From sequence record MW749009.1: a stretch of DNA of 60,862 bases; one strand, written 5' to 3'. Shown here piece after piece: positions 10,339-10,434 of this stretch (positions within the stretch are counted from its first letter, which is position 1; the number at the start of each line of letters is the position of its first letter). The notes under the pieces were generated by a model that saw only the letters and a program-made list of their open reading frames with translations, was not told the origin of the DNA and searched no databases. The position numbers were made by a program, and so were the translations under genes. Origin of the DNA: Bacillus phage vB_BspP_Dartukuta.

Positions 10339-10434
10339 ATTAAAAATAGCTCAACTGCATACCTTGCGCCGCCTGCAGGACGGCTAACCATTACTGGCAA
10401 TCACGAATCGAACGTGAGCTGAGCTATTTTTAAT
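10339..10434. repeat. 15-bp perfect inverted repeat flanking a 66-bp spacer
   Basis: ATTAAAAATAGCTCA at 10339..10353 and its reverse complement TGAGCTATTTTTAAT at 10420..10434; the spacer holds an imperfect palindrome around CCTGCAGG. Confidence 0.6.

Follow-up and report, generated by a model that had tools for sequence, protein, structure and literature searches.

The genome sequence of Bacillus phage vB_BspP_Dartukuta (MW749009.1), whose full 60,862 nucleotides (nt) are referred to here as the window, carries a 15-bp perfect inverted repeat between csrA and a transfer RNA (tRNA) gene, formed by ATTAAAAATAGCTCA (10339-10353) and, at 10420-10434, its exact reverse complement. The best explanation overall, and one that is moderately favored, is that the two repeat arms pair as the helix closing a hypervariable hairpin (HP) within a multi-module RNA of the minus strand, which ends in a hairpin resembling the AbiF antitoxin and likely serves as a decoy. 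Comparison with related loci establishes HP as one module of a modular, mosaic, phage-borne family of predicted non-coding RNAs. An earlier note had located the repeat at precisely these positions and had proposed for it a structured RNA or processing site in the early transcript, a protein binding site, or a small insertion of the miniature inverted-repeat transposable element (MITE) type. The first of these proposals is supported by the compensatory helix changes, the base-pair asymmetry, and the larger conserved RNA described below. The position assigned to the element stands, while the note had missed that it is read on the minus strand, that a larger RNA surrounds it, and that the 3′ end of this RNA resembles the AbiF antitoxin.

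As an RNA of the minus strand, the repeat arms are predicted to form a helix of 19-20 bp that encloses four small hairpins, and in a repeat search they lengthen to 21 nt at 90% identity (10336-10356/10417-10437). The minus-strand fold of 10325-10450 has an energy of −53.8 kcal/mol (z = −5.7), equaled by 0 of 200 shuffled sequences, while the plus-strand fold of the same segment is weaker (−38.3 kcal/mol, z = −3.9). The imperfect palindrome around CCTGCAGG, recognized in the spacer by the earlier note, is present as an inner hairpin at 10368-10384. Also in agreement with that note, the csrA-tRNA gap has no convincing open reading frame (ORF): the longest encodes 109 amino acids (aa) on the opposite strand, spans the hairpin, has no Pfam hit, and cannot be conserved because the relatives have unrelated sequence at that spot. 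Rfam, consulted at the earlier note's suggestion, returns nothing for the hairpin or for its neighboring S1 and S3 modules, either in a gathering-threshold scan of the window or in scans at E ≤ 10 of the region and related loci, and an exact search of viral contigs with the window's own hairpin gives no match.

Related loci, designated here by L numbers, were reached by two routes: syntenic contigs through homologues of the nearby orf228, and 17 further loci through a search of viral, genome, and metagenome collections with the 23-mer GAGUCACUGGCGUWACCAGUGUG, an exact search that biases the set toward hairpin-bearing scaffolds. The syntenic relatives favor a function for the element, in that L001 has the hairpin of the window, lengthened by a 12-nt insertion in a loop, and L002 and L003 have a different sequence after the same 23-mer, yet again an inverted repeat. 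L134 holds related hairpins 3′ of variant small hairpins, and the more distant relatives L006-L008 are without the whole RNA-plus-tRNA block. In all 17 added loci, the 23-mer is followed by YAUUR, a variable stretch of 60-215 nt, and then YAAUR-CAGUG. The 19 related-locus hairpins that follow the same 23-mer (18 distinct sequences, 68-213 nt long) are mostly unrelated to one another, with a median pairwise identity of 0.50 for their interiors under global alignment, and a closing helix of 15-20 bp is present in every one of the 18 distinct versions.

Several measures bear on the pairing of these helices. The hairpins' own arms form duplexes of −18.3 kcal/mol, against −7.4 kcal/mol for arms exchanged between loci. 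In a gapless skeleton alignment, 88.9% of the HP helix cells pair, compared with 30-44% in slid registers, and 12 of the 16 helix pairs have changed on both sides. The covariation score is 0.497 vs 0.188 for shuffled alignments and is reached by none of 500 shuffles; in a set of 28 hairpins, 87% of positions are paired vs 52% with shuffled arms. Helix pairs comprise 285 Watson-Crick pairs, 30 G-U pairs, and 4 A-C mismatches, and the sense strand is the stabler one in 15 of 18 versions. The excess of G-U over A-C and the stabler sense strand show that what selection acts on is the RNA read in the csrA/tRNA sense. The close versions L015, L016, and L021 also differ from one another by compensatory changes (U-A to C-G and G-C to A-U). 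The constant part of HP is a 5-6 bp base (YAUUR/YAAUR), and the tip varies freely; likeness between versions fades from base to tip, as seen between the window and L010 and among L013, L023, and L014, a decay that indicates an expansion-segment pattern and not independent insertions. Other hairpins of the HP type occur elsewhere in these RNAs, each 3′ of a small hairpin and 5′ of CAG. Taken together, sequence comparison establishes HP as being under RNA-level selection for pairing and not for sequence.

This pattern bears directly on the proposal that the repeat is a MITE-like or palindromic mobile insertion, without function, that landed in the csrA-tRNA spacer. The hairpins do start with TG and end with CA, with GTG or CAGTG flanks on both sides; one site holds different "cassettes", some of which are common to otherwise different scaffolds (L022, L024); and irregularities gather where the constant base meets the cassette-specific stem. 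However, the 60.8-kb genome has one copy only, as the search for further 15-mers that the earlier note had suggested finds none elsewhere in the window when up to 2 mismatches are allowed (chance expectation, 0.12), and the versions share no terminal repeat beyond the 5-6 bp base. The flanking GTG/CAGTG "direct repeat" is itself part of the conserved helices S1 and S3, similarity falls from the base inward as in an expansion segment, and the 30 to 4 ratio of G-U to A-C with compensatory changes between close versions argues for selection on RNA. A search of viral contigs also revealed no empty site, a limited test given the bias of the locus set. A mobile insertion is therefore improbable. Among other candidates considered for the repeat, an integron attC site, a shufflon, or an IHF site was rejected because the repeat runs into cassette-specific sequence and shows the RNA-type G-U asymmetry, and a retron-like non-coding RNA, suggested by the long closing repeat, because many of the hairpins are just 63-100 nt, no search aimed at a reverse transcriptase being made.

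It is highly improbable that the element derives from a tRNA, as a decayed gene or a tRNA-like fragment, or else is a site acting as DNA, such as a cruciform or recombinase target. In the window hairpin, AUAGCUCAG, which is the word at the 5′ side of tRNA D-arms, does precede a perfect hairpin of T-arm form, and the L016 scaffold is disrupted by tRNA fragments and a putative HNH endonuclease. ARAGORN and Rfam, however, call no tRNA there, their sole tRNA call being the tRNA-Arg at 9883-9959, and the tRNA-like words are peculiar to the window/L001 version and missing from the hairpins of other loci, for which reason a tRNA- or Y-RNA-like reading of the window hairpin was likewise set aside. A DNA-level site is disfavored by the G-U strand asymmetry, which also leaves the protein binding site of the earlier note unsupported, and the integrase gene lies 9 kb from the hairpin. 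In L016 (about 490-900), the scaffold is broken after CAGUGAAUGCCAG by a tRNA 3′ fragment (GTTCGATTCC...CCA), after which comes an ORF judged by eye from its N-terminal sequence to resemble an HNH-type homing endonuclease.

The predicted RNA is composed, in order, of a leader, S1, HP, the S3 domain with S4 and S5, a pseudoknot module, the AbiF-antitoxin-like hairpin, the tRNA, and a terminator. S1 has the family form CACUGG-CGUWA-CCAGUG and lies within the conserved 23-mer. The helix of the S3 domain pairs CAGUG (10333-10337) with CACUG (10199-10203); it encloses S4a (10314-10329), a variable stretch, and S5a (10204-10222) and is followed by the tail CAUUAC (10193-10198). Its variants are compensatory (CAGUU/AACUG in L003, U-G in L024, and G-U in L013 and L018), as are GCCAA/UUGGC to GCGCA/UGCGC in S4a of L023 and GCAGG/CCUGC to GCUGG/CCAGC in S5a of L011, L018, and L134. 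In L009 the domain has shrunk to a bare hairpin, and in L013 a tRNA array contains a tandem pair of S1-hairpin-S3 units. The S4a loop (GGCUGAU) and the S5a loop (GAUCAGC; GAUCAGA in L018) share 5-6 nt of complementarity, a candidate kissing loop whose blocks are seen in the window, L001, L011, L018, L023, L025, and L134; the contact offers no covariation because the loops barely vary.

The optional module M2 was paired by eye and contains a candidate pseudoknot, formed by 10130-10153 with AUCGCACG further downstream, and another hairpin resembling S1 (10043-10066). The candidate, of the H type and located at about 10095-10153, combines CCCCG-UAAACGUGCGAUAA-CGGGG with downstream AUCGCACG; it is also found in L001, L027, and L009, the last of which retains the pairing in shifted form. 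A helix closing the whole module, between 5′ flank and 3′ tail, was sought by eye and rejected as inconsistent between loci, and a group I intron, suggested by the resemblance of CACAGACUAAA (L001, L002, L011) to the R element, was rejected as Rfam finds no intron and the window does not contain this word. The 12-mer CGAGTCACTGGC, which is the 5′ half of S1 (10448-10459, minus), recurs on the same strand in orf228 (9635-9646), possibly by chance or as a recombination scar. The leader holds a weak promoter-like TTGCCU-17-TAUUGA; a promoter scan detects no sigma-70-like site above threshold in the window or L011, and only weak promoter-like hexamers were picked out by eye in L011, L015, and L018.

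The 3′ module of the RNA, M3, resembles the abiF motif. In a type III toxin-antitoxin system of abortive infection, the RNA with this motif serves as the antitoxin, and it binds and blocks the AbiF HEPN RNase (PMC12373285; PMC12737573). Its stems matter, whereas the sequence of the stems does not (PMC12373285; PMC12737573). Against the Rfam abiF model (RF03085; gathering score 37 bits), the M3 of the window, a phage sequence without an Abi_2 gene, scores 21.2 bits, which is below the gathering score. Phage contigs reach 25.5 (L022), 30.3 (L024), and 31.1 bits (L026, 3′ of a capsid-like gene), and the viral contig L146 exceeds the gathering score with 40.0 bits. Upstream of Abi_2 genes, the score is 33.1 bits in the Acinetobacter plasmids L148 and L151 and 33.3 bits in the Nitrosococcus plasmid L153. 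Because genuine Abi_2-linked Acinetobacter copies reach only 33.1 bits, sub-threshold scores are normal for this abiF subgroup.

Every conserved position of the motif matches in the window, whose CCCGCCAUGCCU-loop-GCACAAAUCG(a)GCGGGU aligns with CCCGCCAAGCCU-loop-GCUCAAAUCGGCGGGU of the consensus. The P1 helix is CCCGUC/G-a-GCGGG, with one G-U pair and one bulged A, vs CCCGCC/GGCGGG in the consensus, and the Acinetobacter version (CCUGCC/GGCAGG) is compensatory with respect to that of the phages. P2 is UGC/GCA in place of AGC/GCU, a compensatory A-U to U-A change, and the CAAAUC between P2 and P1 is identical. An alignment of 13 phage, viral-contig, and related sequences supports P1, P2, and the inner variable hairpin, with compensatory change in 5 pairs and four P1 pairs kept. 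M3 is flanked by a conserved AACAUA on its 5′ side (10032-10037) and by a weak U-tail (9960-9969).

The Acinetobacter plasmids, found with a 50-nt query, provide the closest natural counterparts. Their leader AACAUACCUGCCAUGCCUA..CACGCACAAAUCGGCAGGUUUUUUUU (in extended form uucAACAUACCUGCCAUGCCUAGG...CACGCACAAAUCGGCAGGUUUUUUUU) lies 18 nt upstream of an Abi family protein gene, which sits inside a type I restriction operon and encodes Pfam Abi_2. The phage counterpart AACAUACCCGCCAUGCCUA..CACGCACAAAUCGAGCGGGUUUUU is nearly identical to it across the conserved positions, and the AACAUACC flank is common to both. Directly 5′ of the CAUUAUUC-spacer-motif (CAUUAY), in the place of the S3 domain in the phage RNA, the Acinetobacter leaders also have a hairpin, whose sequence differs between otherwise near-identical loci. 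In the window and 31 loci that are related to it or bear the motif (L001-L028, L110, L134, and L146), by comparison, tblastn (E ≤ 1) and hmmsearch (E ≤ 10) find no Abi_2 homologue, with L148 and L160 as positive controls, and Abi_2 is also absent from Pfam and PADLOC scans of selected ORFs. On the basis of these alignments, the 3′ end of the predicted phage RNA is established as a homologue of the abiF motif without a toxin gene.

Further hairpins of the abiF type, again with the AACAUACC flank, occur on their own in unrelated viral contigs, namely L026 (2645-2699), L159, and L161/L164, where they follow unrelated genes, capsid-like and GroEL-like ones among them. In L160 (2750-3771), such a hairpin immediately precedes a true Abi_2 gene. 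L159, L160, and L161/L164 have CACUUU in place of the CAAAUC loop. L158 (about 340-385), an Acinetobacter wuhouensis Abi_2 leader, has a variant motif whose 3′ half, AAGCGUACCAGUGUGGG, agrees with S1 plus UG (GGCGUAACCAGUGUG) at 13 of 14 positions, through either kinship or chance.

Comparison with known systems places the phage RNA close to, but apart from, each of them. It shares with abiF RNA (also AbiFr or RCd22) the P1 and P2 helices, the CAAAUC internal loop, the AACAUACC flank, and the U-tail, as well as a variable hairpin just 5′ of the CAUUAY-spacer-motif, as in the natural Acinetobacter leaders. Unlike abiF RNA, the phage M3 is followed by a tRNA or unrelated genes and not by Abi_2, it has an extra variable hairpin in its terminal loop and a 1-nt bulge in P1, and HP belongs to a module of its own, farther upstream, that is missing from natural abiF leaders. 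The pseudo-ToxI of phage PhiTE is reportedly a phage RNA that neutralizes a type III toxin-antitoxin system by antitoxin mimicry. Phage sk1 has in its cos region a hairpin that inhibits AbiF and so protects against it (PMC13064643). By analogy, the RNA described here would likewise be a phage-borne RNA or hairpin that mimics or replaces an antitoxin, although the putative mimic is embedded in a far larger multi-module RNA beside tRNA genes.

ROOL and GOLLD are multi-helix RNAs of >500 nt, associated with phages, often located beside tRNA genes, and variable at their periphery. The 743 nt of non-coding phage sequence with tRNAs downstream in 10 of 20 loci are reminiscent of these RNAs; their covariance models, however, give no match even at E ≤ 10 with permissive filters, and the phage RNA is a mosaic of separable modules and not one fixed architecture. 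The expansion segments of ribosomal RNAs (rRNAs) and the RNase III-excised intervening sequences of 23S rRNA combine a conserved helix base with a free tip and are kept as a long stem, which is the arrangement seen in HP. Unlike in rRNA, the host RNA of HP is a phage non-coding RNA, and its excision is putative.

In the proposed mechanism, HP would act as a rigid double-stranded RNA arm that marks or protects its module, in the manner of an RNase III-type substrate, while the csrA-RNA-tRNA precursor is processed; alternatively, it may give the RNA its shape as a structural spacer. The 3′ base of HP (UAAUG-CAGUG) may pair alternatively with CACUG-CAUUA just upstream of the antitoxin-like hairpin (UAAUGCAGUG/CACUGCAUUA), which could tie the folding of HP to the presentation of that hairpin. 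The whole RNA is most likely a decoy that would bind and silence host AbiF-type RNases, and the adjacent tRNA may assist by replacing cleaved tRNA.

A number of observations weigh against this proposal. Transcription, processing, and RNase III cleavage are all predicted from sequence alone. HP-less scaffolds would escape the exact 23-mer search that supplied most of the loci, as its query ends in the UG that precedes HP. The hairpin tips range from about 30 to 170 nt, a poor fit to a precise architectural role. The abiF-like copy of the window reaches just 21.2 bits, with a G-U pair and a bulge in its stem, a long insertion in its loop, and a weak U-tail, and toxin-less abiF hairpins could instead be efficient terminators. 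Moreover, the HP module occurs without the abiF-like hairpin in L009, L010, L012, L013, L018, and L021, and terminator-like abiF hairpins occur without the HP module, after unrelated genes, in L026, L159, and L161. Because the two modules are separable, the role of HP cannot be read from the abiF link.

HP might also be a processing or stability stem of the RNase III type and nothing else, the spacer then being a processed tRNA leader that has no role in trans. RNase III stems flank rRNAs and the early messenger RNAs of T7 and act in the tRNA cluster of T4. A double-stranded RNA of 15-20 bp that is independent of sequence would suit this purpose, and HP has the same orientation as the tRNAs, is often adjacent to them, and lies within tRNA arrays in L013. 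Nonetheless, half of the loci are without a nearby tRNA, and the conservation of S1, S3-S5, and the abiF-like hairpin is left unexplained. This simpler role is unlikely overall, while retaining a modest share of the probability.

The RNA region lies 3′ of the cI-like repressor gene and 5′ of the exo/recT genes and of two hairpins of terminator form (the abiF-like 3′ hairpin and 9844-9861). This position raises the further option of a cis-acting transcription signal of the leftward operon, either a csrA terminator/attenuator or an antiterminator RNA akin to put of HK022, which would let RNA polymerase read through the terminators that precede the recombination genes. That no N-like protein is evident would accord with such a signal. 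However, HP has no U-tract, a terminator scan finds no terminator at 10338-10435 (the hairpin is followed by CAGUGAAUGCC instead of a U-run), and there is no Rfam hit. The module is also found outside early operons, in tRNA arrays and after ninG-like genes (L011, L013), and a hypervariable sequence is ill-suited to an RNA that binds polymerase. There is accordingly little probability of a cis-acting signal, although a put-like antiterminator, which the tRNA-array contexts do not suit, keeps some plausibility for the window itself.

In 9 of 20 loci, csrA neighbors the RNA and shares its strand, which similarly suggests a CsrA-titrating sponge of the CsrB/RsmZ type, or an element of the csrA 3′ untranslated region, paired with the phage CsrA. 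GGA is, however, depleted over 7.5 kb of these RNAs (96 observed vs 143 expected) and as frequent as UCC in the window RNA (5 each), no GGA occurs in conserved hairpin loops, and about half of the loci have no csrA. A sponge is scarcely credible on these grounds.

The palindrome marks an unannotated modular family of phage RNAs that is absent from Rfam, and its helices, kept by compensatory change despite complete sequence turnover, illustrate cleanly, in a natural setting, how selection can act on the shape of an RNA. This family bears on why large structured phage RNAs adjoin tRNA genes and on phage escape from type III (RNA-antitoxin) abortive infection such as AbiF, which is a proposed ancestor of Cas13. 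If the toxin-less copy silences host AbiF, it would constitute a second, independent case of phage antitoxin mimicry; if it does not, the family would still be a new candidate for structural and processing studies. A broader and decidedly tentative extension is that temperate phages of Gram-negative bacteria carry mosaic, fast-diversifying "RNA decoy islands" that disarm HEPN-RNase abortive infection. Such islands would comprise an orphan AbiF-antitoxin mimic, hypervariable S1-hairpin-S3 modules, and replacement tRNAs, with the variable hairpins being an arms-race interface or mimics of other defense RNAs.

Table. Features of the csrA-tRNA region and its surroundings in the window
Feature	Coordinates	Strand	Remarks
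cI-like repressor gene	11639-12277	minus	
orf78	10924-11160	minus	
csrA (57 aa)	10703-10876	minus	same-strand upstream neighbor of the RNA
Non-coding region	9960-10702	minus	743 nt without credible ORF
5′ leader	10459-10702	minus	homologous to the 5′ block of L001-L003, L023, L024, and L027
Terminator-like hairpin	10665-10683	minus	just 3′ of csrA
Conserved 23-mer GAGUCACUGGCGUUACCAGUGUG	10436-10458	minus	immediately 5′ of HP in every locus found
S1 small hairpin	10438-10454	minus	CACUGG-CGUUA-CCAGUG, then UG
HP, hypervariable hairpin	10338-10435	minus	98 nt; 19-bp closing helix, multibranch tip
Inner hairpin, tRNA T-arm form	10401-10417	minus	UCACG-UUCGAUU-CGUGA; window/L001 version only
Inner hairpin around CCTGCAGG	10368-10384	minus	GCCGUC-CUGCA-GGCGGC
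S3 domain	10193-10337	minus	CAGUG/CACUG helix
Optional module M2	10038-10192	minus	window, L001, L027; in part L009, L003, L022; pairing by eye
M3, abiF-motif-like 3′ hairpin	9970-10031	minus	CCCGUCAUGCCU-variable hairpin-GCACAAAUCGaGCGGG
tRNA-Arg(UCU)	9883-9959	minus	begins right after M3
Intrinsic-terminator-like hairpin and U-run	9844-9861	minus	ends the block 3′ of the tRNA; kept in L001-L003

The minus strand carries the whole stretch in the order cI-like repressor gene, orf78, csrA, RNA region, tRNA-Arg, terminator-like hairpin, orf228, recT, and exonuclease gene, and the RNA, lying within the leftward operon, probably belongs to the leftward early operon. Where tRNA genes lie just downstream in the related loci, they are mostly Arg(UCU) but include Arg(CCU), Met, Pro, Ser, Tyr, and Gly, and seven loci have a GerE-type gene further upstream. 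The contigs that host the RNA are lambdoid and F116-like phage, and their named protein relatives come from Pseudomonas and Vibrio. BLAST with the spacer or related RNAs finds no RNA homologue in E. coli genomes or GenBank phages, the matches in the latter being limited to the csrA flank, the tRNA flank, and one chance match. A literature search found nothing on this phage and no paper describing this RNA.

The phage genome encodes CsrA, a BamE/DUF4124 protein, and the C4 and isrK RNAs, and its terminase is 76.5% identical to the terminases of Pseudomonas phages LKA5 and PA8. The Bacillus host label looks doubtful because these features, which include 17245-18516 and 56999-57868, suit a Gram-negative, Pseudomonas-like host. 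The C4 antisense RNA, isrK, and the c4-a1b1 target (56223-56407 and 55302-56183, minus) score above the Rfam gathering thresholds and adjoin an ORF with a P22 antirepressor N-terminal domain, an arrangement that corresponds to an immI module of the P1/P7 type.

Hairpins whose loops share CCUCUGCCAYUGGUAC (L011, about 8625-8720; L015, about 1665-1700) lie just upstream of a conserved small ORF and represent a further candidate cis-element. Elsewhere in the window, a TnpB gene at 59445-60542 (minus) has OrfB_IS605 and Cas12f1-like TNB domains, and a single ORF of 4,203 aa occupies 42617-55228 (plus).

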